Shown here piece after piece: positions 8,996-27,563 of a stretch of DNA of 35,379 bases. Source of the stretch: a virus (Duplodnaviria; Caudoviricetes); IMG/VR virus record IMGVR_UViG_3300027627_000440, positions 1-35,379 of that record. One strand, given 5' to 3'. A program made the translations under genes and the position numbers. How positions within the stretch are numbered: position 1 is the stretch's first letter; each line of letters starts with the position of its first letter. The notes under the pieces were generated by a model. It saw nothing but the letters and a program-made list of their open reading frames with translations, searched no databases and had not been told where the DNA came from.

Positions 8996-9289
8996 CTATA
9001 GGGATTTTACGGGCAAGCCAATTCGAGCGGCCGCAAAGTCGGCGAGGTCTTTGGCCGTCTTTATAAGCTTGAAGTCCATCAGGCTGTTGTTGATGGAGAC
9101 GTTATAGAGATCTTCCATGGACATGACAAGCTCCAGAATCTCTAGAGAATCTAAGTCCAAGTCCTCTTTGAGCCTGGAGTCTAGTGTCAAAACGGCTCCC
9201 TCTCGGAGCGTAGCGATCTTACTAAGTTCACTGGAGAGAATCCCGCGCACTAGATTTCTGATTACTATGTCTTTATCTTCGGTTGTCAT
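8996..9289 (-). CDS. Acyl carrier protein 1
   Basis: EDLDLDSLEILELVMSMED phosphopantetheine attachment motif. Confidence 0.88.
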   Translation of the reverse strand: MTTEDKDIVIRNLVRGILSSELSKIATLREGAVLTLDSRLKEDLDLDSLEILELVMSMEDLYNVSINNSLMDFKLIKTAKDLADFAAARIGLPVKSL

Positions 9290-9906
9290 TTAAATGGGGG
9301 GCTTAAAATTTTGCTTCCTTTTTTCATGTTTTCGATGGCCCATAGGGCTTGGATGTTACTATAGTGATTAGCCTTAACCCACTGCTCGGGATCAAATGGG
9401 TCGAACGCAGATAGGGGGATTATATGATCTATGTGCCATTCGCCATGATTTTCCAATGTCATTCCGGGCTTAAATTTACTTTTTAAATGAGCCTTAAATT
9501 CATCGCCCGTACATCCTACAAGATTGACGAACTTTCCCGGGGACGCGCCATTTATTAAATGATTTAAGTGACGTGAGGCGTTTCTTCTTTTTCTTGCTTG
9601 CGGGGAGAGCGTCCTTTTGTTCCTGCGGGCATTAATTCTGTCTCTATTAAGGGCACCCCACTGACTACGTTTGGCTCGTTTAGCGCTTTTCATTTCGTCG
9701 CTTAGTGAAAGGTATGCCTTTCGGTTATGTTTACCATGGCAGTCTGAGCAATTATAGCGAAGTCCATCTTTTGCTGCTCTGTCCTTATTAAATTCGCTCA
9801 GAGGCTTCGCCGCTAAACATTTGCTACAAGTTTTGACCATATTAGGTTTTGACAAAGGGACAGGCTCCGGTATTTTTGGCTTAATGACTTTAAATGGAGC
9901 CGACAT
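9286..9906 (-). CDS. Free-standing HNH-family endonuclease with N-terminal Zn ribbon
   Basis: CSKC...CSDC, WHIDHIIP, NHYSNIQALWAIENMKKG; real start may be MVKTC at 9840. Confidence 0.8.
   Translation of the reverse strand: MSAPFKVIKPKIPEPVPLSKPNMVKTCSKCLAAKPLSEFNKDRAAKDGLRYNCSDCHGKHNRKAYLSLSDEMKSAKRAKRSQWGALNRDRINARRNKRTLSPQARKRRNASRHLNHLINGASPGKFVNLVGCTGDEFKAHLKSKFKPGMTLENHGEWHIDHIIPLSAFDPFDPEQWVKANHYSNIQALWAIENMKKGSKILSPPFK
9289..9897. mobile_element. 600 bp insertion bounded by 9 bp direct repeats, carrying the HNH gene
   Basis: TTTAAATGG at 9289-9297 and 9889-9897; removing one unit joins the ACP2 stop to the ACP1 start. Confidence 0.6.
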
Positions 9907-10126
9907 AATTAACTATATCTGAAATGGTTTTCGCGTTAGCGATGGTCTGCACGTTTGCGTCAATTCTTTTGCCAGTTTTTTCTTCTATGGAGAGGAAGAC
10001 GGAAAAGACGCCGAGCGAATCCAGTCCTAGGTCCTCTTCGAGTCTGAGTTCGAGATTCGGGGCGACTGTTACTCCTAGCTCTTTTGATAGGGCCTCTAGT
10101 ACTATTTCCTGGTTTGTCATTCCCAT
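9890..10126 (-). CDS. Acyl carrier protein 2
   Basis: EEDLGLDSLGVFSVFLSIEE, TISDIVNYV; 78 aa, acidic. Confidence 0.88.
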   Translation of the reverse strand: MGMTNQEIVLEALSKELGVTVAPNLELRLEEDLGLDSLGVFSVFLSIEEKTGKRIDANVQTIANAKTISDIVNYVGSI

Positions 10127-10497
10127 GTCTCTAGCAAAACTACTGCTGTGGCATACTCTTTTGTATGTGAAAGGCTAACGTGACAATCGCATTCCAACTT
10201 ATCGAAGCACTCTTTCGCCGAATTGTGAAATTTTAACTTGGGCTTTCCTAGTAAATTTTTATTTACTTCAATATTCTTCCAGTGAAACTTTATGCCTATC
10301 CCGTACCCGAACGCTTTTGACGCAGCCTCTTTTGCGGCGAATCTAGCGGCAATATATTGAGGCGGATTGGTATGACTAATGCAGTACTCCTTCTCTGATT
10401 CGGTAAGGACTTTATCTAAAAACTTGAGGCCATACTTGGCGTATAAGCTACTTATCCTTGCCACGTCAACGATGTCTGTCCCTATTCCTAATATCAT
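10117..10497 (-). CDS. acpS: Holo-ACP synthase (4'-phosphopantetheinyl transferase)
   Basis: ILGIGTDIV, AARFAAKEAASKA, GKP, HVSLSHT..YATAVV. Confidence 0.95.
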   Translation of the reverse strand: MILGIGTDIVDVARISSLYAKYGLKFLDKVLTESEKEYCISHTNPPQYIAARFAAKEAASKAFGYGIGIKFHWKNIEVNKNLLGKPKLKFHNSAKECFDKLECDCHVSLSHTKEYATAVVLLETWE

Positions 10498-11113: not shown

Positions 11114-11596
11114 TTAAACCCCAGAGCTACCGTACCCTCCATCTCCCCGCTCAGAAGCCGTTAGGAAATCTGCGTCCTCGAACTCAACGTCGTGACACTT
11201 CTCTATGATTATCTGAGCGATTCTATCGCCCTTCTCTACAAAAAATCTATTTCTCGAGCCGAACATGAGGGTCCTTTCGTTGAAGGATTTGCTGTTTTTG
11301 CTGACGGGGTCGTTCAAGTTAAGGTTAATTAATATCACTCCTATCTCACTTCTGTATCCGGAATCTACAACCCCGCCGAGAACGTCTATTCCCTTTATGG
11401 ATAGCCCGCTTCTCGGGGCTATTCTGCCGTAGTATCCAGGCGGTATTTCCAGAGCTATACTCGTCGAAACTACGACTCTGCTCATCGGGTCTATCACACA
11501 GGCAGTAGACGCGTACAAATCGTACCCCGCGTCGGACTCTTTCGCCCTAGTCGGGATTGTCGCGTTTTCGTTTAGTTTCTTTATTTTTATTTTCAT
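11114..11596 (-). CDS. dut: Trimeric dUTPase
   Basis: Five motifs: AGYDL, PRSG, GVVDSGYR, RIAQII, RGDGGYGSSG. Confidence 0.96.
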   Translation of the reverse strand: MKIKIKKLNENATIPTRAKESDAGYDLYASTACVIDPMSRVVVSTSIALEIPPGYYGRIAPRSGLSIKGIDVLGGVVDSGYRSEIGVILINLNLNDPVSKNSKSFNERTLMFGSRNRFFVEKGDRIAQIIIEKCHDVEFEDADFLTASERGDGGYGSSGV

Positions 11597-11865
11597 TAGA
11601 AATCTGCCGAACCTTCCGGCTTTTCGTCCTGAACTACTTTGTCCGAAATTTTGCGATAGATGCTGCTGGGTCTACCGGTCCTGGGCTCGCTCTTCCCGGC
11701 TTTGGTAAGCGTACCGTCTTCTAGGCCTTCGTTGATTTTCAACTGAACGGTTACGTTGCAAATTTTCCCGCCCATCATGTTCATTACGTCCTTGACGGTG
11801 AAGTTTGTTTCGGGCCACTGAATCGTTATGGGTGGGCGGCCTCTCTTATTGCTAGCTGTATTCAT
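11596..11865 (-). CDS. Small putative DNA-binding protein
   Basis: KRGRPP and TGRPSSIY; start MNTAS preferred because a promoter occupies the upstream extension. Confidence 0.6.
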   Translation of the reverse strand: MNTASNKRGRPPITIQWPETNFTVKDVMNMMGGKICNVTVQLKINEGLEDGTLTKAGKSEPRTGRPSSIYRKISDKVVQDEKPEGSADF

Positions 11866-11872
11866 ATCTGGA

Positions 11873-11900
11873 TATATACCCTTAATTCCAAAATTGTCAA
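11873..11900 (-). promoter_or_regulatory. Sigma70-like promoter for the leftward block
   Basis: Perfect TTGACA, 16 nt spacer, imperfect TATATA, 7 nt to ATG. Confidence 0.55.
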
Positions 11901-11929
11901 TCATTTTTTAATGAAAGGTTTTTTTTGGG

Positions 11930-11941: not shown

Positions 11942-12349
11942 ATGACAATCGTAGAAGCTTCCAACAAACTGTTTGACTGGTTCTCTAAAAGTGACTACTT
12001 TTCTTTTGCTGACAATTTTCAAGAAATGATCGTTATTTCAGAAACTCTCGAAGAAGACAAGGCGTGCTTAACTTGCGCTTTGGAGGAGTTCGAAAAGTTA
12101 GAATTTGTAAAATCCGCACAAATTAAAGGCAAAAAGATTTGGGTGCTAAAGAAAGCGTTCGACTCGTTTGAACAAAACGTAAGCATAAATTTCGAAATGG
12201 CGCACTCGATCTCAGGGATTATCAATACTTTTTGTGAAACGATTAACGATACTAGCGACCAGTGTGATCCGACAAACATCACCAAGAAAGACATCAAGAA
12301 TTTACTGATAATCTTTCATCACGTCACAAAGACTAATGCAGAGAAATAA
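11942..12349 (+). CDS. Hypothetical protein
   Basis: 135 aa ORF directly after TATAAT; no recognised motif. Confidence 0.75.
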   Translation: MTIVEASNKLFDWFSKSDYFSFADNFQEMIVISETLEEDKACLTCALEEFEKLEFVKSAQIKGKKIWVLKKAFDSFEQNVSINFEMAHSISGIINTFCETINDTSDQCDPTNITKKDIKNLLIIFHHVTKTNAEK

Positions 12350-12350
12350 T

Positions 12351-12379
12351 TTGACTTTTCTGAAGTCTCACTATATCTT
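12351..12379 (+). promoter_or_regulatory. Sigma70-like promoter
   Basis: TTGACT-N17-TATCTT. Confidence 0.65.
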
Positions 12380-12384
12380 TGTGA

Positions 12385-12748
12385 AAAGGGTTCACCCCCT
12401 TTAGGCCAGCCGAGATAAAACGGCAAGGTTTCCCAAGAATGACCATCGCGGTGCGCCGTACCATCGGCCTCATTCAAAGGGCTGGGCTCTCGTTCATGCG
12501 AGATGAAAAAAAATGAAAGGTTAAAATCTTTCAGAATTACCCGCTGTGTCGCTTTAAGCGAGGGTTGGCTGCCGTTGATTTTCAATTGAAGTTTTAGCAT
12601 ATTTCTTCGCTCCTAGTGATAGGATAGGCAGTTCTAGCGTGTCGCTAGTGTTATGATTGCGTGGAGTTGACTTACCACATTAATATAAAAAGTCCTAAAG
12701 GAAAGCAAGCATATAATTTTACCCCCTGGAGAAATCTAGGGGGTATTG
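12385..12748 (+). ncRNA. Candidate structured non-coding RNA of unknown class
   Basis: Largest gap in the window, directly after a promoter; about nine hairpins, two GNRA tetraloops, G-U pairs consistent with the plus strand. Confidence 0.55.
12720..12745 (+). terminator. Strong hairpin (terminator or 3' stem of the RNA)
   Basis: TACCCCCTGGA-GAAA-TCTAGGGGGTA followed by only a weak U tract (TTGTT). Confidence 0.5.
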
Positions 12749-12807
12749 TTGCTCGATTATTCTTAGGAAAAGTCCACATATGACCGATTCGAAAGGCTTA
12801 AAATATT

Positions 12808-13452
12808 ATGATGATTGGAATTGCAGGGGTAGCCGGAGCTGGCAAAGACTTATTCGCCACGATTCTCTCTCAGACTCTCGACAAGTATCAAATTACTTCT
12901 CACAGATACGCACTAGCCGACGCGTTAAAGATCGAGATGCGGCCGATTTTATTAGATACTTACGGAATAGACATAGTCGCCTGTGACAGGGCCACCAAGG
13001 ACGCCCATAGGCCGTCGCTCGTGGCTCACGGAAAGTTCAGAAGAGACTCAAGTGGTGGAAGGTATTGGACAGATAAGATTTCTGAAAGAATAAAATTAGA
13101 AAAACCAAGCGGAGTTGTTTGTGTGACGGACATAAGATACGACCAATATGAGAAGGACGAGCTATTCTGGTTGAAGGAGGAGATGAGTGGTTTCTTGGTC
13201 CACGTATCTCAATTCAAGATTCAGGACGGAGCGAAGGTAATGAAAGGAGGCGCTAACGAAGAGGAGGCTAAGTACGATCCTATCCTTAAGTCGAAAGCCG
13301 ATTACGTAATCGAATGGGAGTCTGTTGATATCAGTCATGATAATGTAGGGAGCTTGCTTCAGCGACACATAGACGGGTTCCTGTTCTGGCTTAACAAAAA
13401 TGACGAACGTAGACATAGGCTTGGTAAATGCCATAAAAAGTACAAACTGTGA
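12808..13452 (+). CDS. Phage-type deoxynucleoside monophosphate kinase
   Basis: IGIAGVAGAGKD P-loop, ALADALK, YW, VTDIRY...E. Confidence 0.82.
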   Translation: MMIGIAGVAGAGKDLFATILSQTLDKYQITSHRYALADALKIEMRPILLDTYGIDIVACDRATKDAHRPSLVAHGKFRRDSSGGRYWTDKISERIKLEKPSGVVCVTDIRYDQYEKDELFWLKEEMSGFLVHVSQFKIQDGAKVMKGGANEEEAKYDPILKSKADYVIEWESVDISHDNVGSLLQRHIDGFLFWLNKNDERRHRLGKCHKKYKL

Positions 13453-13993
13453 AAATAGTCTAGTAGAGTTAATTCAAAAACACTCCAATCTCTGTTATAG
13501 TATTTGTCAGAAGTATTCTCCAGCCATGCTAGCTTCAGGCCTTCATCCCGAAGACGTAATCTCAGAGAAGGACTACATAATATACAAGTCCGCTCTATCC
13601 TACAATCCCACTTATAAGATAAAATTCTCCACTTGGCTTGGTAACCAGATTAGGTATCACTGCCTAAACAGGATAAATAAAGATAATGTTTATGTCACCA
13701 TGGAAGAAGGTGATTTAAATTACTTTGTAGAGAAAACCGCAGACGAGCAGTCTGGCGTCGAGAATGATAGCATAAAAACATATGTATTTAGTATCTTGGA
13801 CAACCTTCAAGATAAGCGCATATCTGAAATTTTCAAACTCAGATACTACGAGAACTCACCAAGGCTCACCACCTGGAAAGCAATAGCCAAAAAGATGGAC
13901 ATAAGCTCGCAGACCGTCATAAACATTCACAATAGAGGAAAGAGATTGTTGTTGAACCGCCTAAACGGGAAACCTTTAGAAAGTTTTCTTTAA
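13400..13993 (+). CDS. Phage sigma-70 family factor
   Basis: YNPTYKIKFSTWLGNQIRY (region 2), IFKLRY..TWKAIAKKMDISSQTV (region 4 HTH). Confidence 0.85.
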   Translation: MTNVDIGLVNAIKSTNCENSLVELIQKHSNLCYSICQKYSPAMLASGLHPEDVISEKDYIIYKSALSYNPTYKIKFSTWLGNQIRYHCLNRINKDNVYVTMEEGDLNYFVEKTADEQSGVENDSIKTYVFSILDNLQDKRISEIFKLRYYENSPRLTTWKAIAKKMDISSQTVINIHNRGKRLLLNRLNGKPLESFL

Positions 13994-13999
13994 ATTCTT

Positions 14000-14028
14000 T
14001 TGACTATCTGTCTTTACCGGCGTATAGT
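14000..14028 (+). promoter_or_regulatory. Sigma70-like promoter
   Basis: TTGACT-N17-TATAGT, 11 nt before ATG 14040. Confidence 0.7.
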
Positions 14029-14039
14029 ATATACCAAAT

Positions 14040-14393
14040 ATGAATACTACCGACACTTCAAATACATCAAACAAGGCCGCCAACGATTGGCAAAAGAGAG
14101 AAATCGGCGCCCTCTGGAAGAGAGTCAGTTCTCCGTCCTCGACGTTTCCAAGAGGCAGAACCTATCTCACCGGTACGCTCAAGATCGACGAGCTAGGCGA
14201 AGAGAAGATCGTAAAGGTCGTCGTATTTTCTAACGCGGACAAGAAGAACGAGAAGGCTCCGGATTTCCGGATATATATATCCAAGGACGCAACCAGCAAG
14301 GAGTCCGACTCGGTTGCTAAGTCGGCGCCAGTTAAACAGGTCGCCGCGAAAGTCCAGCAGCAAACTGCTGCCGATGGCGACGATATTCTATGA
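14040..14393 (+). CDS. DUF736-like protein, possibly ssDNA-binding
   Basis: EIGALWKR, YLTGTL, KKNEKAPDFRIY, flexible linker, acidic tail DGDDIL. Confidence 0.6.
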   Translation: MNTTDTSNTSNKAANDWQKREIGALWKRVSSPSSTFPRGRTYLTGTLKIDELGEEKIVKVVVFSNADKKNEKAPDFRIYISKDATSKESDSVAKSAPVKQVAAKVQQQTAADGDDIL

Positions 14394-15466
14394 GCTTTGC
14401 GCTAAACGCCCCAATTAATTCGGTCTCATTCGGCCAGGTGTCAATGACCTGGCTTAGAAAGCTTTACGAAAGAAAACTTGCCCTACCGATCTTCCCGATT
14501 GGAGGGCAAGTTGACTTATCGACGCAGCAAATAGATACGGCATTTCAGGCTTGGCTTCAAGGGAACATCAACGAGGCATACGCGACTCACTCAAGAAGCA
14601 ACACGGCGATTAAGCTTTGGCATCTCGAAGGGTCAATTGAATCCGTCAGTGAGAAGCAGGTTCTTTTTTCTTTCTACGAATTAGATCACCCGACGAAGCA
14701 GGAAATTAACGTCGGCAAGAATAACACTTTAGCCTTTAGCTCCAAATACTCTTGCGAGGTTTTTGCGGACTGCGGCGTTGAGTCTCATTATATACCCCTC
14801 GGATTTGACTCTTACAACTTTAAGAGGATAGAAAAGAAATACTTTTCCGATAATCGCATCGTTTTTAACGTAGTAGGCAAGCTGGAAAAAAGAAAGCGTC
14901 ACGAAAAAACAATCCGGACTTGGATTAAGAAGTTCGGAAACAATCCGAAGTATTTTCTACAGTGCGCCATTTACAATCCTTTTTTATCAGAGAAAGACAA
15001 TGCGGGCTTAGTTCACAACATCCTCGAAGGGAAGAAATATTTTAACGTAAACTTCTTAGGATTCATGGCTAAGAACCACGTATACAACGACTTTCTAAAC
15101 TCCGGAGATGTTGTTATTGGAACGTCCGGAGGCGAAGGCTGGGGATTACCAGAGTTTCATTCCGTAGCAATGGGCAAGCACGCTGTCATAGTTGATGCTC
15201 ACGGCTACAAAGGCTGGGCGACAGAAAATAATTCAGTCCTATTAAAGGTTTCCGGAAAGATAGATTGCTATGACGGCGTCTTCTTTAAGCAGGGCAGACC
15301 GTTCAGTCAGGGCCAAATCTTTGATTTCAACGAAGACGATCTAGCGGATTCTCTCGACTTAGCAATAGCCAGAGTAGAAAAAGACAGACTCAACGCGCAG
15401 GGACTCAAGCTTCAAGAAGAGTTTACTATCGATAAAAGCTTAGACGCTTTAATTAAACTCACGTAG
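14390..15466 (+). CDS. GT-B fold glycosyltransferase (GT4-like)
   Basis: VGKLEKRKR, SGGEGWGLPEFHSVAMGK. Confidence 0.85.
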   Translation: MSFALNAPINSVSFGQVSMTWLRKLYERKLALPIFPIGGQVDLSTQQIDTAFQAWLQGNINEAYATHSRSNTAIKLWHLEGSIESVSEKQVLFSFYELDHPTKQEINVGKNNTLAFSSKYSCEVFADCGVESHYIPLGFDSYNFKRIEKKYFSDNRIVFNVVGKLEKRKRHEKTIRTWIKKFGNNPKYFLQCAIYNPFLSEKDNAGLVHNILEGKKYFNVNFLGFMAKNHVYNDFLNSGDVVIGTSGGEGWGLPEFHSVAMGKHAVIVDAHGYKGWATENNSVLLKVSGKIDCYDGVFFKQGRPFSQGQIFDFNEDDLADSLDLAIARVEKDRLNAQGLKLQEEFTIDKSLDALIKLT

Positions 15467-15471
15467 CCCGT

Positions 15472-15819
15472 ATGCCAGTTTACTTATATCTTAACCCCAA
15501 GACTGGCGCGGTGGTTGAGATCTTACAGGACATGAATTCCAATCATGAGTACACCGATGACAAAGGGTTTAAGTACGAGCGAATCTTCACCAAGCCCAAC
15601 GCGGCAATAGACACTTCGATAGACGCCTTTGACCAAAAAGGCTTTGCTAGGAAAACTAGCTCTAAAAACGAAACGCTCGGCGACCTTTGGGACCGCTCCA
15701 GAGAGGCTAGTGAAAAAAGAGAAAAAGTCGTCGGCAACGATCCGGTTAAGGAAAAGTATCTGTCCGAATACTCGAAGCAGCGCAAAGGCAAGAAGCTTCC
15801 CAAAGATCTACAGAAATAG
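15472..15819 (+). CDS. FmdB-like small protein lacking the zinc-ribbon cysteines
   Basis: MPVYLYLNPKTGAVVEILQ N-terminus. Confidence 0.55.
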   Translation: MPVYLYLNPKTGAVVEILQDMNSNHEYTDDKGFKYERIFTKPNAAIDTSIDAFDQKGFARKTSSKNETLGDLWDRSREASEKREKVVGNDPVKEKYLSEYSKQRKGKKLPKDLQK

Positions 15820-15924
15820 TAGGCCTTCCATTTCGTCAAGCTAAAGTTATTCTTTGTCGATTTTTCTTTTCCCTTTGCCCGTTCCCGATGTAATATACCT
15901 TGCGAGCAGAAAGGCTATTCCGAA

Positions 15925-18360
15925 ATGAGCAAAGTAATCCACGTTAAAAAGCGGAATGGAAGAGTTGAAGAACTCAACATCAATAAAATAAATCTTTGCG
16001 CCGAAAGAGCGTGTAAAGGTTTAGACAACGTTTCCGCGTCTGAAGTCGTTCTCGATACCCACCTTCAACTTTTCGACAAGATACAGACGACCGAGATAGA
16101 CAAGGCCTTGATTCTCACCGCTAGGAGCAAAATATACAAAGAGCCTAATTACTCCTACGCGAGCGCGAGACTGCTCTTGGCGTATCTATACAAAGAAGTC
16201 TTCGGAGAAAAGCGCGAAGAGGAAAGCCTTGAGCTTCAGTATCGCCACGCTTTCATCCGGCACATTAAAAGCCTAGTAAAGAAAGGGATACTACACCCCA
16301 ACTGTTTAGACTTTGATCTGAAGAAGATGTCTGAGGCTCTGTGCGTTGACAGAGATTTAATCTTCAAGTACCACGGACTACAAAACCTTTGCGATAGATA
16401 TTTTCTCAGAGACGAAAAGGGAAAGATCGCAGAAACTCCTCAAGCATTCTACATGCGCGTTGCTATGGGTCTATGCTGGAACGAAGAAAACAAAGAAGAC
16501 AAAGCGATAGAGTTCTACAACATCTACAGTCAGCATCTCGCAAGCCCCTCGACTCCTACGCTTTTTAATTCAGCTGGCGTTAGCAATCAGCTGTCCTCCT
16601 GCTATCTATCGGAAATAGAAGACTCCATTGACGGCATCTTTGACAGCCTGTGGCAAGAGGCTCGCAAATCTAAATACGCTGGCGGCTTAGGGTTTCACGT
16701 TTCTAAGCTGAGGGCCACGAATTCTCGAATCGTTGGCACGAACGGCTCATCCAGCGGACTTGTTCCTTGGATGAAGATCTACAACGACATGCTCATCGCC
16801 GTTAATCAAGGTGGGAAACGCAATGGTTCCGGCTGTGCATATCTGGAACCTTGGCATCTTGACGTTGAAGATTTTATTGATCTCCGAAAAGAAACGGGAG
16901 AAGAGCGCCGTCGAGCCCACGACATGAACACCGCCCTATGGTGTCCCGACTTGTTCTTTAAGCGAGTTGAGCAGGACGCGGACTGGATGCTGTTCTGCCC
17001 GAGCGAAACCCCCGAACTGCCAGAGACGTATGGGGCTGAATTTGAAAAGTTCTATCAGGATTATGAAAAGAAAGCTCTATCTGGAGAACTTAAGCAGTAC
17101 CGCGTCATTAAAGCCAAAGACCTGTGGAAGAAGATGCTCAAGTCCTACTTCGAGACATCGCATCCCTGGATAACCCACAAGGACAACGCAAACATGAGAT
17201 ACTCTAACGCGCACGAAGGAACCCTTCACGGATCCAATCTTTGCACCGAGATATTCCTCCACTCGAAGCACTCTAAATACAAAGACGGAAAAAAGACAGA
17301 GGTCGGAGAAACGGCCGTTTGCAATCTATCTAGCATCAACGTCTCCGCTTACGTAGAGGATAAAAAGATCAACTACAAAAAGATGTCAGAAGTTATCAGC
17401 CGCGTCATTCGCGCCCTAGATAACGTAATTGATATTAACTTTTACCCCACCGACGAATCTAAAAACTCAAACACAAAGCACCGCCCAGTCGGAATGGGGA
17501 CAATGGGGTGGGCAGATCTTTATCATAAACTTGGCGTCGTTCAGGATAGCGAAGCTGGAGTTAAACTTGCCGATGAACTTATGGAGTTCATCTCCTACCA
17601 CGCCATTCTTACGTCGAGCAAGTTGGCCGAAGAGCGCGGGAAGTATCCATCATACGAAGGCTCCGCATGGAGCAACGGAGTTCTGCCAATAGACAGCTGG
17701 CTGTCCCTGATGAAATTTAAAGGCACAGAAGTCCAGTTCACACCAAAAATGGATTGGCTTCCGGTCAGAGAGTCGATTGCCAAGCATGGAATGAGAAACT
17801 CGAACACTATGGCGATTGCGCCAAACGCGTCCATAGCTTATCAGCTGGGTGTCGAGCAGTCTATCGAGCCGAACTTCAGTGTACTATTCTCCTACGAGAA
17901 TAAATCGGGTCGCTATTATATCATCAACGATCATTTTGTTAGTGATATGAAAGAAGAGGGGCTTTGGAGTGCGCGTTTTGCCGAGCAAGTCAAAGCCGCA
18001 GATGGAGACGTCTCCCTCCTAGACATACCCGAGAAATACAAAGAAAAATACAAGACATGCTTCGATAGAGACCAAATGAAACTTGTCGAGGCTTGTGCCG
18101 CAAGACAGAAGTGGATTGATCAGGGAATCAGCTTCAACGGCTACAACAAAGGAAGTAGCTTAAAGTTTCTCAATGATTACTATATGCTGTCTAATAGACT
18201 AGGCTTGAAGTCTAACTATTATCTGAGAAATGTTCCAGCTAGCAAAACACAAAAGACGACGACAGTAGTCACCCAAGAGACACCAACAGAGACGCAGAAA
18301 GCCGAGTGCTCCATTGACGCAATGAAGAATGGCGGAAGCTGTGTCATGTGCGAGGGATAA
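15925..18360 (+). CDS. nrdA: Ribonucleotide reductase class I alpha subunit with ATP cone
   Basis: VKKRNG ATP cone, TPTLFN, LSSCY, SNLCTEI, VCNLSS, YYLR, C-terminal CVMCEG; no intein seen. Confidence 0.97.
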   Translation: MSKVIHVKKRNGRVEELNINKINLCAERACKGLDNVSASEVVLDTHLQLFDKIQTTEIDKALILTARSKIYKEPNYSYASARLLLAYLYKEVFGEKREEESLELQYRHAFIRHIKSLVKKGILHPNCLDFDLKKMSEALCVDRDLIFKYHGLQNLCDRYFLRDEKGKIAETPQAFYMRVAMGLCWNEENKEDKAIEFYNIYSQHLASPSTPTLFNSAGVSNQLSSCYLSEIEDSIDGIFDSLWQEARKSKYAGGLGFHVSKLRATNSRIVGTNGSSSGLVPWMKIYNDMLIAVNQGGKRNGSGCAYLEPWHLDVEDFIDLRKETGEERRRAHDMNTALWCPDLFFKRVEQDADWMLFCPSETPELPETYGAEFEKFYQDYEKKALSGELKQYRVIKAKDLWKKMLKSYFETSHPWITHKDNANMRYSNAHEGTLHGSNLCTEIFLHSKHSKYKDGKKTEVGETAVCNLSSINVSAYVEDKKINYKKMSEVISRVIRALDNVIDINFYPTDESKNSNTKHRPVGMGTMGWADLYHKLGVVQDSEAGVKLADELMEFISYHAILTSSKLAEERGKYPSYEGSAWSNGVLPIDSWLSLMKFKGTEVQFTPKMDWLPVRESIAKHGMRNSNTMAIAPNASIAYQLGVEQSIEPNFSVLFSYENKSGRYYIINDHFVSDMKEEGLWSARFAEQVKAADGDVSLLDIPEKYKEKYKTCFDRDQMKLVEACAARQKWIDQGISFNGYNKGSSLKFLNDYYMLSNRLGLKSNYYLRNVPASKTQKTTTVVTQETPTETQKAECSIDAMKNGGSCVMCEG

Positions 18361-18361
18361 G

Positions 18362-19378
18362 ATGATGAAAAATAAAACCAAACTGCTGGACGGCAATCCG
18401 GCAGGAGTTTCCCAGCTGCTAGAGTCCAGGCATAAGTATCCAATAGAACTTTGGAAAAAGGCTTGCGCCAATAACTGGATGCCTCAGTCAGTTAACATGT
18501 CCGAGGATATCAAACAGTGGAAAGAGAAAGGGTTGATTAGCGACGATGAGCGACTTCTAATTAAAAGAACCCTTGGTCTATTTGCGGCCGGAGAGAGCCT
18601 AGTCTCGAACTCCATCATGCTCAACGAGTACAAGTATGTCACGGACGGAGCCTGCCGTCAGTACTTACTCCGCAAGTCGTTCGAGGAGAGCCTGCATAAC
18701 TTTACCGTTTCGGTGTGCTGCGAGGCGTATGGGCTTGATGTCCATGACGTCGCGGAGGCCTACAAGAGCATCAAGACTATCAAAGCTAAAGACCAGTTCC
18801 TAGAAGGCGTCATATCCGACATGGGAGCTAAGGACTTTAATATTGAGACCATCAGAGGCAAACAGGATTTCGTGCGCAACATCTTTACCTTCTATATTAT
18901 TTGCGAGGGTTGCTGGTTCTATCCCAACTTTGCTATGGTTCTCAGCCTAGGCAGACAGAATAAATTGCGCGGCCTATGTGACCAGATAGCCTACACCATG
19001 AGAGATGAAACTCTTCATTTCTCATTTGGGGTTTATTTAATAAACGAATTGAAGAAGGAATACCCCGAAATCTGGACTAATAAGTTCCAAAATGACCTAA
19101 TAGACCTCATGAAAGAGGCTATGGAATTAGAAGTTAACTATTCTAAAGAAGTCCTTCCTAATGGCATCTTGGGGGTAAATTCTCAAATGTTAGTGGAATA
19201 TGTACAGTTTTTAGCCAACGATAGGCTCGAACAGGTAGGCCTAGACCATAAGTTTCCTAGCGTTAAGAACCCATTTCCTTGGCTTGGGGAGACTCAGGAT
19301 AGTTCGGCTATGACAGCTTTCTTTGAGGTTAGAAACAAGGACTACCAGAACGCTGGAGCCCTAATTGACGACTTTTAG
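18362..19378 (+). CDS. nrdB: Ribonucleotide reductase beta subunit, class Ic (R2c)-like
   Basis: NNWMP, GESLV, EESLH, CEGCWFY, RDETLH, FFEVRNKDYQ; ATG 1 nt after the nrdA stop. Confidence 0.95.
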   Translation: MMKNKTKLLDGNPAGVSQLLESRHKYPIELWKKACANNWMPQSVNMSEDIKQWKEKGLISDDERLLIKRTLGLFAAGESLVSNSIMLNEYKYVTDGACRQYLLRKSFEESLHNFTVSVCCEAYGLDVHDVAEAYKSIKTIKAKDQFLEGVISDMGAKDFNIETIRGKQDFVRNIFTFYIICEGCWFYPNFAMVLSLGRQNKLRGLCDQIAYTMRDETLHFSFGVYLINELKKEYPEIWTNKFQNDLIDLMKEAMELEVNYSKEVLPNGILGVNSQMLVEYVQFLANDRLEQVGLDHKFPSVKNPFPWLGETQDSSAMTAFFEVRNKDYQNAGALIDDF

Positions 19379-19429
19379 AAGAAAGTATTTCTCCCCAGCT
19401 CACCCTTCGGTGTAAACTAAGTTGAAATC

Positions 19430-19729
19430 ATGGAAAATGCTTTTGCTCCCCAATTCGTGTTCAATATCGTTTTTGCGATATTAAGCTTCTTTTCAGGCTG
19501 GATGCTGAAGGTCATCTTCGGTCTAATAAGCCGAATTCAAGAAGACAACAAGAGTACCACGGATAAGATTCAGGAAGACTACCGCAGATTGGCTGAGCAG
19601 GTCACGGACCTCGCAATTTCCCTACCCCAAAACTACGTTTCCAAAGATGACTTCAATCAGCTTCTTAAGGCCGTTCATCACAGATTCGACAGGTTAGAGG
19701 AAAAAGTAGACTCTCTTAAAACGAAGTAG
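19430..19729 (+). CDS. Membrane-anchored coiled-coil phage protein
   Basis: N-terminal TM, then YVSKDDF...FDRLEEKVD. Confidence 0.7.
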   Translation: MENAFAPQFVFNIVFAILSFFSGWMLKVIFGLISRIQEDNKSTTDKIQEDYRRLAEQVTDLAISLPQNYVSKDDFNQLLKAVHHRFDRLEEKVDSLKTK

Positions 19730-19795
19730 CTTCTTCGTTCAAATTCTACAAATATCTTCAGTGCATTTACAGTCCTATCGACGGACTAATAGTGC

Positions 19796-20662
19796 ATGAA
19801 AATCCTCTTTATAAGCGATTATTCTCTTGAACATAACAAGGGCGGAGCGCAAAGAAGTAACGATTTAATAATAAAGAGAGGCAGGGAGCTCGGGCACGAG
19901 GTCAAATGCTTCCATTTTGATTGCGACCCCACGATTTGCAACGAGGAGTACGATCACGTCATCTCCTCGAATCTTCAAGATATAACTAGGTTTCATCCAA
20001 ATATTATTAGTTGGCTGTATAATCAGCCCGCCCACTCTAGGCTAGAGCATGACAAGAACGCGTACCTCACCCCCGATCAGAGAAGAATGCTATTTTCTAA
20101 ATGTAAAAACACCTTTTTTCTATCTCGGTATCATCACGAGCTATTCAAGACTCTCTACGGTGACTTTTTTACCAACGTCAAGATAGTCCATGACCCCATA
20201 GACACTGACCTTTTTTACGACAAGAAGCTAGTAAGAGAAGAGAAAACCCTCGGAGTCGGATTCATGCACTATCTTAAGGGCTCAGACTTGTTCTTCAACG
20301 TCGTGCGGAGCAATCCCGATAAACAGTTTGTCGTCGCTGGATGGGGGCTTCCAGAGTATGTCAGCCTTGCTCGATCTTGCCCAAACGTAGAGTTCCTTGG
20401 GGTAGTCGAGTATTCGGACATGCCAAATCTGTACAACAAGTACTCGAATCTTTTCTATCACCCCATAACGGAAGAGCCCTTTTGCAGATCAGTAGGGGAG
20501 GCAGCTCTGTGCGGTATAAAGCTGCACGTCCCGGCGGGAAAGATCGGGGCGATGCAAGAGATAGAAAGGCTTGGCCTAGACGGATTCAAAGAGGGCTGCA
20601 AAACAGCCGCAGACTCTTTTTGGAAGATCATCACCGATGAAAATACTATTAGTTCTCAATAA
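19796..20662 (+). CDS. GT-B fold glycosyltransferase (GT4-like)
   Basis: KILFISD..GGAQRS, KG, EPFCRSVGEAALCG. Confidence 0.85.
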   Translation: MKILFISDYSLEHNKGGAQRSNDLIIKRGRELGHEVKCFHFDCDPTICNEEYDHVISSNLQDITRFHPNIISWLYNQPAHSRLEHDKNAYLTPDQRRMLFSKCKNTFFLSRYHHELFKTLYGDFFTNVKIVHDPIDTDLFYDKKLVREEKTLGVGFMHYLKGSDLFFNVVRSNPDKQFVVAGWGLPEYVSLARSCPNVEFLGVVEYSDMPNLYNKYSNLFYHPITEEPFCRSVGEAALCGIKLHVPAGKIGAMQEIERLGLDGFKEGCKTAADSFWKIITDENTISSQ

Positions 20663-21551
20663 GTTCCTAGTCAGGAATGGCAATAAAAGAATTGACTCGG
20701 GCCACTTCAACGTGTACGTCCCGCTTTTAGAGCTTGGTCACGACGTTAAATGGTACGACACAGTAGAGCCAGAAGAGAAAGACTTTAAGCGGGTTGTCGA
20801 TGAATTTTCCCCAGATATAATTTTTTGCTGTTTTACTGGCAACTCCAACTTTGCCCCGTACGAGCCCCTGAAGGAGATTGAGGAGATAACCAAGATGGGC
20901 AATATAAAAACTTTTAATTGGTTTTGTGATGACACTTGGAGATTTGAAAATTTCTCAAGTAAGATATGCAAGGCGTTTCACTGCTGTTCCACCCCAGAGC
21001 CAAGCTATCTAGAAAAGTTCAAGGCAATTGGATACAACAATATAATCCTAGGAAGCTGGCACTGTAATAGGGATTTGCACGTAAAGCCCGAAGCCCTAGT
21101 AAAAGAAGTCGGCTTCTGCGGCGGGGTAACCCGAAGCAGACAAGTTCACCTAGCCAATTTATCAAATCTATTCGACGTTGGATATTTCGGTGGATGCACC
21201 TATGAGGAAATGTTTCTTGGCTACTCTGCATGCAAAGTTGGGGTTAACTTTAGCGTAAACGACAACGACCCAAGTGGGAAAACGCAAATGAAACTGAGAG
21301 TCATGGAGATCGCTAATGCCGGTTCTCTACTAATCACAGAGTACACTAGCGGGCTAGAAGACCTATTTGTCATTGGCGAAGAGATTGTTGCATTCTCATC
21401 GCCAGAAGAAATGATTGATAAAGTCCGATTCTATCTCGATAATGAAGAGAGTAGATTGAAAATAGCAAAGAGGGGTGAAGATAGGTTCGTTAAAGACCAC
21501 GAGTCCAAAATCAGAATGGAACAGATAATTAATCAAATAAATAAAATATGA
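20637..21551 (+). CDS. CgeB-like glycosyltransferase
   Basis: NWFCDDTWRF, VGFCGG, QMKLRVMEIANAGSLLITE, LFVIGEEI. Confidence 0.85.
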   Translation: MKILLVLNKFLVRNGNKRIDSGHFNVYVPLLELGHDVKWYDTVEPEEKDFKRVVDEFSPDIIFCCFTGNSNFAPYEPLKEIEEITKMGNIKTFNWFCDDTWRFENFSSKICKAFHCCSTPEPSYLEKFKAIGYNNIILGSWHCNRDLHVKPEALVKEVGFCGGVTRSRQVHLANLSNLFDVGYFGGCTYEEMFLGYSACKVGVNFSVNDNDPSGKTQMKLRVMEIANAGSLLITEYTSGLEDLFVIGEEIVAFSSPEEMIDKVRFYLDNEESRLKIAKRGEDRFVKDHESKIRMEQIINQINKI

Positions 21552-22453
21552 GGGCGTATATCCCAATTCACAATTCAGGCGCAGGCAAGTGGATCTATAA
21601 GGGTTACGCAAAGGCATGGAGTGCTCTTGGGTATGAAGTGCACTTCTTTTCAGGCATAAGCGAAATCAAGGACGACGGAGAATATTACGTTATGTGCATC
21701 GACGCCCAAGTCGATAACGAGAATTTTCACATTTTAGAAAATAGCACAGCAACATTCGTTTACACTCAGCCAAACGTCTTCCCGCTTCCATGGCGTAACC
21801 ACCCCAACTTTCAATGCCACTGCCGCCCAGACGTAATTAAAAAGATAAACAAACTCGGCAAAGCCAAAACGTGGACATTCGGACACTCTACAAGATTTCA
21901 TTCGCTATGGAAGAAGCCGCTCACTGTTCCGCTAGCTTTCGATGATGAGTCGTACAAAGACAACCAGCCGAAAGAAGACATAGACGTTTGCTTTATTGGC
22001 GGCGCGGCTAACAACGGCTTTGACACCAAGATGGGGATAATGAGCAAGACCCTTGAAGAGTTTAAAGATAGCGGCTTGAAATGCGCATTTCACGTAAATG
22101 AGTCAATTTCACATGAACGGGAGAGCCAGATTTTATTTTCCTCGAAGGTCGCGTTAAACATTCACGACGAATACCAAAGGGTTCTCGGCTTAGACACAAA
22201 CGAAAGAACGTTCAAGTCTCTCGGGTGCTGCGGATTACTCGTTAGCGATGAGATAGACTGTCTTGATTCTTTATTTAACGGGCTGCCACAAACTAATGAC
22301 CCCCAAAAGATGGTTAAGATTATCAAAGAATCCCTAGCCTCCTTCTCTGCCGATAAACTATCGGAGATGAAGGAGAGGACTAAGTCCCTCGTGCTGAAAA
22401 GCCACACATACAAAAATAGAGTGAAAGCGTTACTAAATGAACAAGCAACCTAG
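21548..22453 (+). CDS. CgeB-like glycosyltransferase
   Basis: VPLAFD, DVCFIGG, SKVALNIH, NERTFK, HTYKNRV. Confidence 0.8.
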   Translation: MRAYIPIHNSGAGKWIYKGYAKAWSALGYEVHFFSGISEIKDDGEYYVMCIDAQVDNENFHILENSTATFVYTQPNVFPLPWRNHPNFQCHCRPDVIKKINKLGKAKTWTFGHSTRFHSLWKKPLTVPLAFDDESYKDNQPKEDIDVCFIGGAANNGFDTKMGIMSKTLEEFKDSGLKCAFHVNESISHERESQILFSSKVALNIHDEYQRVLGLDTNERTFKSLGCCGLLVSDEIDCLDSLFNGLPQTNDPQKMVKIIKESLASFSADKLSEMKERTKSLVLKSHTYKNRVKALLNEQAT

Positions 22454-23195
22454 AGTAACTTGCATTATACCCTGCTACAACGCAGAGAATTGGGTAGAAG
22501 AAGCGGTTTCCTCCGTTCTTTCCCAAAGCTATGAAAATCTAGAGATCTTTGCAATAGATAATGAGAGCACGGACGGAACCTTAGTTAAATTAAAAGCTAT
22601 AAAAGAAAATCTATATCCAGACCTAATAGTGGAGTCCGTCCCGAATATATACCCGCTCTGCTGCCAAGAATGCGTCGAAGCCGTCCTCCCCAAGATGAGC
22701 GGCGACTACTTCTTCATCATGGGAGCCGATGACCTTCTCTACACGAACTTCGTCCGCAACAACATAAATTTCATACTTAACAGACAATTTGAAATTAGCG
22801 AAGAGATACTAATCTGGCAAAGCCAGATAATCTCAATAAACGCCGAGAGCGCGATTCTACAAGAAAGGGTCGCTCACAGTTACAAGGACCTAGAAGAGTT
22901 CAAGGCCCTCTGCCTCAAGCATAGCCCAGTTGCCACCCCCACCGTTTTCTACTCAAAGAAACTTGTCGACATGGGCTTGTATAAGCCAAATTCCGAAGAG
23001 TTCAGCGGCGCCGCCGATTATGACCTATACTGCCAATTAGCCGACGCCGGTGTTTTTATCCATATCATTCCCATGGCAATTGGTTATTATTACCGGTGGC
23101 ATCCAGAGCAATCAACGTGGGGGATGCATCGCCAACCGGTCAATTACGACGCCAAGATAAAAGAAAAATGGAGAAACAAATGGCAAGTAAAATAG
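22437..23195 (+). CDS. GT2 glycosyltransferase
   Basis: IIPCYN, DNESTDGT, GADD, ADYDL, YYYRWH. Confidence 0.9.
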   Translation: MNKQPRVTCIIPCYNAENWVEEAVSSVLSQSYENLEIFAIDNESTDGTLVKLKAIKENLYPDLIVESVPNIYPLCCQECVEAVLPKMSGDYFFIMGADDLLYTNFVRNNINFILNRQFEISEEILIWQSQIISINAESAILQERVAHSYKDLEEFKALCLKHSPVATPTVFYSKKLVDMGLYKPNSEEFSGAADYDLYCQLADAGVFIHIIPMAIGYYYRWHPEQSTWGMHRQPVNYDAKIKEKWRNKWQVK

Positions 23196-24136
23196 TTTAC
23201 GTAACTGGATGCTTAGGCTTTATTGGGTCTTATGTCACTAAAAAATGCCTTGATCTAGGATGGTTTGTCAGGGGCGTCGACAAATGCACGTACGCGTCCA
23301 GGCCAGACAAGCTAGCCGAGTTCAACGCTTATCCCAATTTCGTTTTTGAAAAAAAAGACATTAACGACATAGAGTTCCTTTACGACTGCGACTATATAAT
23401 AAATACCGCAGCAGAAACCCACGTAGGTAATTCAATTGTCGATAGCGCGGACTTCATTCACTCGAATGTCTCTGGCACCCATAAACTTTTAGAGCTTCTC
23501 CGAAACTATCGGCAAGAAAATAAAAATAAGCCGACTCTTCTTCACTTCAGTACGGACGAAGTATATGGGGACATCGGACAAGGGGAGCATGTAGAGACGG
23601 ACATCCTCAAGCCCAGCAATCCATACTCCGCCACGAAAGCCGCTGCGGACATGCTTGTCCTGGCTTGGGCTAGAACTTACGGAATTAATTACGTAATAGT
23701 GCGACCCACGAACAATTATGGCGTCGGTCAATACGTAGAGAAACTCATTCCCAAGACGATCAAATACCTTAAGCTCGGTAGAAAAATCCCTCTGCATAAC
23801 AACGGATCTCCAATCAGAAACTGGCTACATTCGGACGATACCGCGTCAGCAGTTATCCGCATAATTGAGAACGGTTGCCAAAACAAGATTTACAATATAT
23901 GCGGAGGCTTCGAGCAAGACAACCTAACTACGGTCAGGAAGATCATCAACCAGTATTCTAATTCTGAAACAGAAATAAACGACTATCTAGACTTAACCTA
24001 CAGTCGCGTCGGCCAAGACGTAAGGTACGCGCTCAACGACGATAAGCTTCGAAGCATCGGCTGGAGGCCCAAGATGAAATTCGATGAAGAACTCCCAGCA
24101 ATAGTCGATTTTTACAGAGACAAATTCATATGGTAA
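23180..24136 (+). CDS. rmlB: dTDP-glucose 4,6-dehydratase-like
   Basis: TGCLGFIGS, AAETHV, STDEVYG, PYSATKAA, NNYG, EKLIP; start trimmed to MASKIV. Confidence 0.9.
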   Translation: MASKIVYVTGCLGFIGSYVTKKCLDLGWFVRGVDKCTYASRPDKLAEFNAYPNFVFEKKDINDIEFLYDCDYIINTAAETHVGNSIVDSADFIHSNVSGTHKLLELLRNYRQENKNKPTLLHFSTDEVYGDIGQGEHVETDILKPSNPYSATKAAADMLVLAWARTYGINYVIVRPTNNYGVGQYVEKLIPKTIKYLKLGRKIPLHNNGSPIRNWLHSDDTASAVIRIIENGCQNKIYNICGGFEQDNLTTVRKIINQYSNSETEINDYLDLTYSRVGQDVRYALNDDKLRSIGWRPKMKFDEELPAIVDFYRDKFIW

Positions 24137-25200
24137 AGACCAACGCATTTGAAAATTTATTTGTACTGGAGCTAGCCAACAACCACTGGGGCTCTCTAGA
24201 TAGAGGAAAGAAGATCGTTAGAGAGTTCTCCAAGATTGTAAAGAAGCACAATGTAAAAGCTTCGATTAAATTACAATTTAGAGATGTTGAAAGTTTTATC
24301 CACAAGGACTATTCGGACGGCGCGAAATCCGCGTCTTTCGCTTACGGCAGATATATAAATAAAACCGCAAAAACAAAGCTCTCCAAAGAAGACCTGCTTA
24401 CTCTTGTTAATTATATTAAGAGATGGGGTTGCACGTCTATGGCGACGCCGTTCGATGAGCGCTCTGTTGATTGGTGCGAAGAGATGGGCATATCAATAAT
24501 TAAGATTGCAAGCTCCGACATAAACGATTGGATTCTCATTGATAGGATAGCCAAAACAAAAAAGCCAACTATTATCTCTACCGGCGGCGCGGACGAAAAG
24601 CAAATAGACGACGTAGTGAGATATTTTGAGAACAGAAAAATTCCCTTAGGAATCAATCACTGCGTATCCAAATATCCATCCGAAGACGATGAGCTAGATC
24701 TAAATCAGATAGACTACCTGAAGGCAAGATATCCCAATAATACCATCGGCCTATCTACTCACGAGCATAAGGACTGGCGGTCATCAATGCTCATCTCTTA
24801 CGCCAAAGGAGCCAGAACCTGGGAAAGACACGTCGATATTCCCTACGGCCCAGATGAGTGCGAGCAAAAAGAAATCAGCTCCTACTGCTCTCTCCCCACT
24901 CAAATAGATCAATGGTTTGATGCTCACAAAAAGGCAGTCGAAATGTGCGGCTCTTCCCCAGAAGAAAGAAGAGCAATAGGAGAAAAAGAATCCGAGTACC
25001 TAAAAGCCTTATACAGAGGGCTGTACTTAAAGTCAAGTCTAAAAAATGGCGACAAGATATCGTTAGGAGACCTATATAGCGCCGTGCCCTTCCAGAAAGA
25101 GAAGTTTCAATTTTCATCTAGAGAATTCATAGATGGAGAATACACTTTGAACAAAGACCTCCCAAAAGACAGTCCACTTACAGTTAGTGACGTTTTTTAA
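24130..25200 (+). CDS. NeuB-family PEP-dependent ulosonic acid synthase
   Basis: LELANNH, KLQ, TPFD, KIAS, STG, HCVSKYP, GLSTH, ERH, C-terminal SAF-like domain. Confidence 0.88.
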   Translation: MVKTNAFENLFVLELANNHWGSLDRGKKIVREFSKIVKKHNVKASIKLQFRDVESFIHKDYSDGAKSASFAYGRYINKTAKTKLSKEDLLTLVNYIKRWGCTSMATPFDERSVDWCEEMGISIIKIASSDINDWILIDRIAKTKKPTIISTGGADEKQIDDVVRYFENRKIPLGINHCVSKYPSEDDELDLNQIDYLKARYPNNTIGLSTHEHKDWRSSMLISYAKGARTWERHVDIPYGPDECEQKEISSYCSLPTQIDQWFDAHKKAVEMCGSSPEERRAIGEKESEYLKALYRGLYLKSSLKNGDKISLGDLYSAVPFQKEKFQFSSREFIDGEYTLNKDLPKDSPLTVSDVF

Positions 25201-25202
25201 GA

Positions 25203-27562: not shown

Positions 27563-27563
27563 T

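Follow-up and report, generated by a model that had tools for sequence, protein, structure and literature searches.

The sole gap of more than 250 nt between the mapped genes of the window, i.e., of the whole stretch of 35,379 nt of phage DNA analysed here, very probably holds a genuine non-coding RNA gene of a new, uncatalogued family (probability about 0.93). A preliminary description, made from the letters alone, had singled out this gap (positions 12350-12807, 458 nt) as the only one of ~450 nt in a tightly packed window and as the site of a new ncRNA of unrecognised class. Both claims were borne out, the first by the gene map and the second by conservation, covariation, a conserved promoter and the lack of a match in Rfam. 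We call the RNA Family A. Its predicted length in the window is ~400 nt, or ~365 nt if it ends at a C-tract/G-tract hairpin, and the family ranges from 342 to 414 nt with a median of 386 nt. The locus is laid out as follows.

11942..12349, plus strand: 135-aa phage gene upstream of the Family A RNA, a usual but not obligatory neighbour
12351..12379, plus strand: sigma-70-type promoter candidate by sequence pattern, with the -35 box at 12351-12356, a 17-nt spacer and the -10 box at 12374-12379
12385..12782, plus strand: whole predicted RNA (Family A), based on 88 distinct homologues and covariation
12808-13452, plus strand: dNMP kinase, neighbour outside the RNA (phrog_139/phrog_351 matches with the sigma neighbour)
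13400-13993, plus strand: sigma factor, neighbour outside the RNA (phrog_139/phrog_351 matches with the kinase neighbour)

The window is a piece of a larger phage genome, and its genes encode, among others, ClpP, two sigma factors, acyl carrier proteins and their synthase, dUTPase and ribonucleotide reductase, with sugar-synthesis genes spanning ~15 kb. Genes run leftward up to 11904 and rightward from 11942. Near-identical copies of the window sequence were found in freshwater runs, and relatives of the phage include marine contigs, judging by contig names. Of two complete relatives, G013 and G016, one measures 158 kb and the other 178 kb; G016 encodes DNA polymerase III, DnaB, primase, RecA and several sigma factors (122 of its 150 ORFs were scanned). 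Since all 11 ClpP matches with an organism name and five of the nine such ACPS matches belong to Verrucomicrobiota, the host probably belongs to this phylum. Rfam and ARAGORN searches over the window yielded two tRNAs and nothing else; the distance from the RNA to the nearest tRNA is 4.5 kb in the window and ~2.3 kb in G016, and in G013 it is large.

Several other features of these genomes deserve mention in their own right. The divergent genes at the strand switch encode proteins of 102 aa (11596-11904, minus strand) and 135 aa (11942-12349, plus strand) and form a possible regulator pair; the former, in a low-confidence model, resembles winged-helix structures of the Atlas (TM about 0.58), and the latter gave no Pfam or PHROG family match and weak Atlas structure leads. 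Two acyl carrier proteins and a phosphopantetheinyl transferase are encoded at 8996-10497 on the minus strand, and a 206-aa protein between the two carrier genes shows, by eye, an HNH-like motif without a Pfam match. G016 carries genes of the TnpB (L308:8130-9638), tubulin/FtsZ (L310:9983-11146) and histone-deacetylase (L308:14473-15390) families as well as an arginyl-tRNA-protein transferase domain (L308:5127-5915). Phage tmRNA genes are present in G016 (L306:3676-4080, between recA and dnaB), G013 (L314:10910-11327) and the relative G001 (L321:9269-9656), and the tags predicted for them are unusually long, with 21-31 residues. G001 also has a tRNA-Ser called by ARAGORN with the anticodon ACT (L321:8171-8260), which is rare in bacteria.

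Loci were collected by searches with the sigma protein and with a kinase alignment, and gene order was retained in the loci so obtained; locus searches with the upstream gene alone or the kinase alone returned none. In IMG/VR, all 46 matches to a 5' pattern were true Family A members (one of them, L130, partial), as were 28 of the 30 matches to a core pattern, and a metagenome scan gave 115 true members among the 120 matches listed of ~140. A GTDB scan with one 5'-domain pattern, which is blind to cellular homologues bearing a different 5' domain, produced six matches, five by chance and one a true member. The latter (L297) is a copy with the phage gene order on a 44-kb contig in a MAG titled Pseudomonadales, probably a phage contig binned wrongly. 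Altogether, at least 205 member loci including duplicates were found, and the 160 near full length form 88 clusters at 97%, with the window and its duplicate L229 counted as one. Members share 57% identity on average, and none exceeds 58% identity to the window. All of these sequences come from one clade of 115-200-kb phages, which, like the window phage, probably infects Verrucomicrobiota. A very divergent copy is present in a 203-kb phage (L130:1278-1584, minus strand; 5' domain E 1.6e-8, core 29 bits); its terminal hairpin is longer and its repeat unlike the usual one. G013 and G016 have one Family A copy and one ordinary tmRNA each. G001 (87% complete) and G002 (83% complete) are without Family A and without the second family described below, and the core covariance model found nothing in either; the function of the RNA is thus presumably dispensable.

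Searches for known relatives of the RNA were negative. At gathering score, Rfam gave no family match beyond tRNAs and one tmRNA in the window, four loci and 140 kb of G016; a permissive scan of the gap (E up to 10) returned five chance matches far below thresholds, and three other members gave none at E up to 0.5. Nothing was found by blastn with the window RNA and L028 against GenBank phages or with L106 against plasmids, or by tblastn with the two flanking proteins against phages, and full-text searches of the literature yielded no description of either family. As for a catalogue of 10,006 viral RNA candidates (PMC10690425), six IMG ids were absent from those of its files that were checked, and fragments of Family A may be listed elsewhere in it.

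The fold was derived from covariation and is divided into a 5' domain, a variable region and a knotted core, followed by two 3' modules that flank a terminator-like hairpin.

12385..12431, plus strand: 5' domain, with a first hairpin (12385-12402) and a conserved hairpin with a purine-rich 8-nt loop
12409-12412/12421-12424, plus strand: inner stem of the conserved 5' hairpin (helix structure test)
12432-12481, plus strand: variable multibranch arm, differing widely in length and sequence among homologues
12488-12503, plus strand: variable hairpin within the variable region 12432..12504
12505..12648, plus strand: knotted core, ~140 nt (covariation)
12511-12514/12601-12604, plus strand: core helix Pa (double-sided change in 3/4 pairs)
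12514-12533, plus strand: core hairpin H4 (double-sided change in 5/6 pairs)
12533-12534/12544-12545, plus strand: short core helix Pf
12539-12542/12562-12565, plus strand: core helix Pe (weak support)
12546-12548/12598-12600, plus strand: core helix Pb
12549-12561 and 12575-12585, plus strand: hairpins inserted in the core of the window
12567-12573/12627-12633, plus strand: long-range core helix Pc (double-sided change in 6/6 pairs)
12588-12591/12605-12608, plus strand: core helix Pd
12611-12624, plus strand: core hairpin H5
12634-12648, plus strand: core hairpin H6 (double-sided change in 4/4 pairs)
12652..12713, plus strand: 3' module 1 (covarying pairs 12662:12677 and 12663:12676)
12661-12664/12675-12678, plus strand: stem 1 of the module 1 pseudoknot
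12669-12673/12690-12694, plus strand: stem 2 of the module 1 pseudoknot, weakly supported
12694-12705, plus strand: motif M1 within module 1
12714..12752, plus strand: terminator-like region, with a C-tract/G-tract hairpin at 12720-12745 and a broken U-tract
12753..12782, plus strand: 3' module 2, in which M2 (12762-12772) and Y2 nearly repeat M1/Y1 with one base less

The core is pseudoknotted, with Pa and Pb crossed by Pc and Pd, and contains conserved unpaired bases within a compact double pseudoknot. Among the 88 sequences, the 15 strongest covarying column pairs scored above almost every maximum from 25 nulls simulated on the tree; 14 of the 15 are Watson-Crick. In a structure test on 38 diverse sequences, 39 of the 67 pairs of the named structure showed double-sided change, with 316 double-sided cells against 102 in shuffles (a level reached by none of 500) and at most 114 in slid controls; helix 3 of the 5' domain was 92% paired with four double-sided pairs. 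The columns of the 3' pseudoknot and the terminator were misregistered in this test, leaving three helices 42-65% paired, and support for them was taken from the 88-sequence covariation instead. Between the window and a close strain in RNA-library run X16, five pairs of Pc and H6 have changed in compensatory fashion. Over 27 well-aligned core pairs of the 88 sequences (three misregistered pairs left out), 128 G-U cells stand against 20 A-C cells, which fixes the plus strand and favours RNA. Folding is better than in all 100 shuffles for the plus strand (z = -3.2 for 12351-12748 and -3.7 for 12384-12785); the minus strand reached z = -2.8, and 11 of 16 sampled homologues had a plus-strand z below -2. 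No covarying pair joins the 5' and 3' ends in the 88 sequences. Together these data support a multiply pseudoknotted secondary structure. A conserved ORF within the element was also considered and rejected, since indels occur in all three phases and no frame is kept. One of the two hairpins inserted in the window (12575-12585) falls in an otherwise near-invariant 4-base junction after Pc, which shows that this junction is no closed tetraloop; at the place of the other (12549-12561), one subgroup has a hairpin, too.

Much of the structure proposed in the preliminary description could be recovered. Its local stems are present, and double-sided changes support the ones that lie in conserved parts; its remark that plus-strand G-U pairs favour RNA agrees with the counts given above, and the comparison of folding energy with shuffles that it had named came out in favour of the plus strand of the element. 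Of the checks it had named, comparison with Rfam gave no family match for the element, and covariation in syntenic relatives proved to be present and to exceed the nulls. It was right in expecting a pseudoknot and wrong about which: the crossed pairs it suggested (12404-12411/12563-12570 and 12419-12425/12570-12576) covary no better than chance in 38 homologues (0.152 vs 0.150, reached by 219 of 500 shuffles), and their strands are used instead by the 5' hairpin and by the helix 12567-12573/12627-12633, the existing pseudoknots having been found by covariation.

In module 1, a strand X (12652-12660) pairs with a strand Y1 (12705-12713) and encloses an H-type pseudoknot and M1. Y1 and X fit each other better within one locus than across loci, and Y1 also fits a strand behind the G-tract; X or X' with Y1 or Y2 makes two interchangeable helices. 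Module 2 repeats the motif behind the terminator-like hairpin and may lie outside the main transcript. The two motifs resemble each other far more within a locus than across loci (alignment score 12.1 vs 7.1); 50 of 51 loci lie above the cross median and 30 reach or exceed the best cross score, with lineage-specific variants present in both copies. Of 62 distinct pairs, 56 have an M1 one base longer than M2 and six have motifs of equal length, and the spacing between M1 and M2 is 46-76 nt without helical phasing. No consistent complementary partner for this purine-rich motif was found inside the RNA, which is why we think that it would be read from outside. A reading of M as a promoter box for a phage sigma factor was rejected: M-like motifs in G016, G013 and the window follow no pattern upstream of genes.

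The 3' arm of the terminator-like hairpin repeats two separate core strands in most homologues, the tail reproducing core strands in collinear order and skipping the inserted domains. Tail and core agree in a 4-mer in 78 of 88 sequences, where frequencies predict 31, and in the base after it in 81 of 87; the window belongs to the 10 sequences whose 4-mers differ. Changes in tail and core amount to only 2-4 independent pairs on well-supported branches, nearly all of them the same way or unchanged, which is not significant. Covariation also links the 5' arm of the hairpin to a strand of the core (columns 233:385, E about 0.04). A swapped fold had a probability above 0.5 in only seven of 88 truncated RNAs (ViennaRNA). 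A hairpin of like style closes an ordinary gene in G016.

Transcription of Family A is predicted to start near 12385. Here, the preliminary description had placed a promoter at 12351-12379, which holds for the family: of 88 homologues, 55 have a strict promoter pattern in this position, where shuffles would give 2.4. The letters of the window's site alone would not have carried the claim, as its 9/12 match is shuffle-like (4 vs 3.8). A second promoter-like site behind the element occurs in 48 of 82 loci vs 11.8 expected. The end that had been set at 12748 needed correction, for the element extends ~35 nt further, to about 12782. In two RNA-library runs from one study (X16 and X20), contigs span the element wholly or in part. 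Their depth in X16 reaches 31-46 over the element of a near-identical strain vs 5-10 over the kinase and sigma genes, and in the DNA run X7 depth is flat at 9-14; as contigs of these three runs carry no strand, transcript end or level, and contigs of 66 kb in one of the two RNA-library runs suggest DNA, depth is not counted as evidence.

In 81 of the 88 clusters, a homologue of one of the window's flanking genes lies directly beside the RNA; the remaining seven are the window itself, short contigs or loci with this neighbour further off. Twenty clusters lie on the other genome arm, adjoining dUTPase and/or a 115-aa gene, and many others have an additional gene ahead of the kinase. As a cis element would, the RNA invariably lies no more than about two genes from the start of a long operon, which measures some 40 kb in G016. 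The long ORF that follows has the same orientation in 69 loci and the opposite one in eight (i.e., 69 of 77 scorable loci agree in strand); two loci lack such an ORF, and nine are too short for scoring. In seven loci the ORF behind M2 is convergent, measures 142-305 aa and ends 3-28 nt from the motif, and module 2 is retained there; PHROG identifies one of the seven as a sulfotransferase. Because it relocates, has its own and a downstream promoter, can face a convergent gene and is absent from G001 and G002, the element behaves as a self-contained, dispensable unit, and from these sequence comparisons we consider it probable that the RNA acts in trans. The earlier suggestion of a regulatory leader for the dNMP kinase and sigma genes found little backing, given the variable downstream gene, the second promoter and the seven convergent loci.

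The same slot is occupied in other phages by a second non-coding family of ~420 nt, Family B (L002:2930-3365, L031:2025-2455, L352, L340, L388 and others). It has a promoter of its own and a long 5' closing helix, probably also a kissing pair, and it contains a direct repeat of 12-17 nt that co-varies within each phage. Among 46 loci with both flanking genes, 15 hold Family A, 28 Family B and three, near-identical to one another, neither; none holds both. Likewise, none of 72 loci matching the Family B pattern (48 of them true Family B) holds Family A. HMMs of the two families do not match each other, the Family A core covariance model finds no Family B locus, and Family B has no match in Rfam. 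The folding energy of the L002 member is that of shuffled sequence (plus-strand z = -0.2). Family B carries an M-like motif twice, ~200 nt apart, with an extra base in the first copy in 9 of 17 distinct patterns among the matches listed; by eye, a central strand can pair with either copy. In L373 a tRNA-like sequence, also seen by eye, starts right behind the second repeat.

What the RNA does can at present be put forward tentatively. We favour a decoy or scaffold acting in trans, with the two near-identical 3' sites as the places where a host protein would bind. Early in infection, host RNA polymerase would transcribe the RNA from the sigma-70 promoter in front of it, and the core would fold during synthesis, with the strand before the C-tract able to close the 3' domain. 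The tail, repeating core strands in order, could then displace them by strand exchange, and module 2 could catch the tail, which would give two folds. Recognition of M1 and M2 would fall to a host protein or complex, probably two-fold, which the phage would thereby sequester or redirect.

Other readings compete with this decoy or scaffold. In a ribozyme or self-processing RNA, one guide strand would dock at either of two nearly identical sites with a one-base difference, and the core would cut or join there; group I introns offer a parallel, with an internal guide that holds both splice sites. This seems unlikely, but it would account for the highly conserved unpaired bases in the double-pseudoknot core, for the one-base rule in two families without detectable similarity and for the tail that copies core strands collinearly; moreover, large, complex bacterial RNAs are often catalytic, according to PMC5737381. 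Against it, Rfam scans contain no known catalytic motif, and no cleavage or ligation joint was seen in the RNA-library contigs, in which rare forms are dropped. A broader version, for which we would give somewhat better but still poor odds on the sequence patterns, is that Families A and B are interchangeable members of a new ribozyme or strand-exchange class defined by a guide strand and two sites one base apart; if so, such an RNA would cut, join or refold itself or a host RNA. Slightly less probable than self-processing is cis-acting control of the long operon for replication and sugar genes, by attenuation or by RNA-only antitermination, in which the folded core would hold the 5' arm of the hairpin and block termination. 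The location at the start of a long operon (~40 kb in G016), directly after a promoter, the covariation of that 5' arm with the core (E about 0.04) and the same-strand gene in 69 of 77 scorable loci speak for it, as do the put RNAs, which sit behind early promoters and reach over 10 kb (PMC9378689). Yet seven loci have a convergent gene directly behind, 48 of 82 a separate promoter downstream, the downstream genes vary, and relatives retain the operon without the RNA. The plus strand shows only nine weak terminator-like sites at 12800-32700, and both strands together have no excess over shuffles (24 vs 20.4). The element is, in addition, five times the size of put. An RNA-only multimer after the manner of ROOL and GOLLD, in which X/Y strands and M motifs would swap between chains to form a ring or cage, ranks level with the cis-acting control. 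Its two interchangeable helices would allow domain swapping, and like those RNAs Family A is phage-borne, large, pseudoknotted and dispensable (PMC12286853); on the other hand it is much shorter (median 386 nt vs 581 nt for ROOL and >800 nt for many GOLLD), lies outside tRNA islands in two complete relatives, and no covarying palindromic kissing loop was identified in it.

Two further readings are improbable. M1 might, in the way of ColE1 RNA II, invade the DNA at M2 and prime replication from an R-loop, since the identity of M1 and M2 would allow an RNA-DNA hybrid and the element adjoins the strand switch, where the cumulative GC skew of the window is lowest. However, the skew follows the coding strand in G013 and G016 and not an origin, M1 and M2 differ by a fixed one-base gap at an unphased spacing of 46-76 nt, the element relocates and is missing in two largely complete relatives, and the phage clade has its own primase and DnaB; we regard an origin-priming transcript as highly doubtful. 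Hardly credible is a very divergent tmRNA, RNase P RNA, SRP RNA or remnant of a group I/II intron. The size fits tmRNA and RNase P RNA, and M2 of the window resembles the 5' conserved box of RNase P, but the letters of M2 vary among homologues instead of being fixed, and RNase P RNA models, with their closing helix P1 and the conserved regions of P4, do not match Family A (RF00010 matched in none of five relatives, four of which have a full Family A). ARAGORN finds no tmRNA here, no model matches a tRNA-like domain from paired ends, which do not co-vary, a tag frame is not kept, with indels in all phases, and the complete relatives carry an ordinary tmRNA elsewhere. The RNA is intergenic with intact flanking genes, so no gene is interrupted as by an intron, neither a conserved G-binding helix nor a domain V was found, Rfam contains no match at E up to 10 (0.5 in three other members), and the long-range helix in a P7-like position changes at 6/6 pairs. 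Searches for partners of other classes were also negative: RVT_1 (retron, DRT or DGR) was found in none of nine related records, five of them at least 90% complete, and a Ro60/TROVE gene, as expected for Y-RNA-like RNAs, in none of five phage records. No ROOL or GOLLD covariance model, both of which are present in Rfam 15, matched Family A.

Few large, intricately folded ncRNA classes are known in bacteria and phages, and such RNAs are held to be especially likely to show unusual biochemistry (PMC5737381). Family A comes with 88 diverse sequences and a worked-out knotted fold, and a size of ~400 nt makes it simple to transcribe, probe and image. The paired site with its fixed one-base difference, the tail that copies the core and the gene-for-gene replacement by Family B, which retains the paired site, provide experimental handles. 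The RNA may reveal how large phages use RNA to commandeer hosts from an aquatic phylum that is abundant and little studied.

Comparison with known systems places Family A among, and apart from, several kinds of RNA. Transcriptional ON riboswitches work by invasion of a terminator strand, and similarly the 3' arm of the terminator-like hairpin of Family A repeats core strands and could displace them; unlike in riboswitches, there is no consistent class of downstream gene, some neighbours are convergent, the core exceeds known aptamers, and an extra module copy follows the hairpin. Protein-sequestering RNAs such as CsrB/RsmZ and 6S RNA show repeated or mimic sites. OLE, with bS21, is another example of a protein-binding RNA (PMC12286853). 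Family A shares with them repeated sites in a free-standing predicted RNA, as expected for a decoy; it differs in a motif that changes in step within each phage and often lacks GGA, and in a fold that is knotted instead of a rod or a string of hairpins and that has no Rfam match. The put RNA of phage HK022, a cis-acting element of ~70 nt and two hairpins that sits behind an early promoter and reaches more than 10 kb (PMC9378689), resembles Family A in its place right behind a host-type promoter at the head of a long operon, whereas Family A is five times larger, may face a convergent gene and has its own promoter downstream. Closest in kind stand ROOL and GOLLD, described in PMC5737381 and PMC12286853 as large, ornate, multiply pseudoknotted ncRNAs of phages and prophages, with an average of 581 nt for ROOL, more than 800 nt for many GOLLD, and ROOL reported as non-essential in one strain. 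Like them, Family A is large, phage-borne and dispensable and contains several pseudoknots; unlike them, it is ~390 nt long, matches nothing in Rfam, has been found in one phage clade only, and lies at the head of a replication operon, outside tRNA islands in two complete relatives, with a duplicated 3' module.
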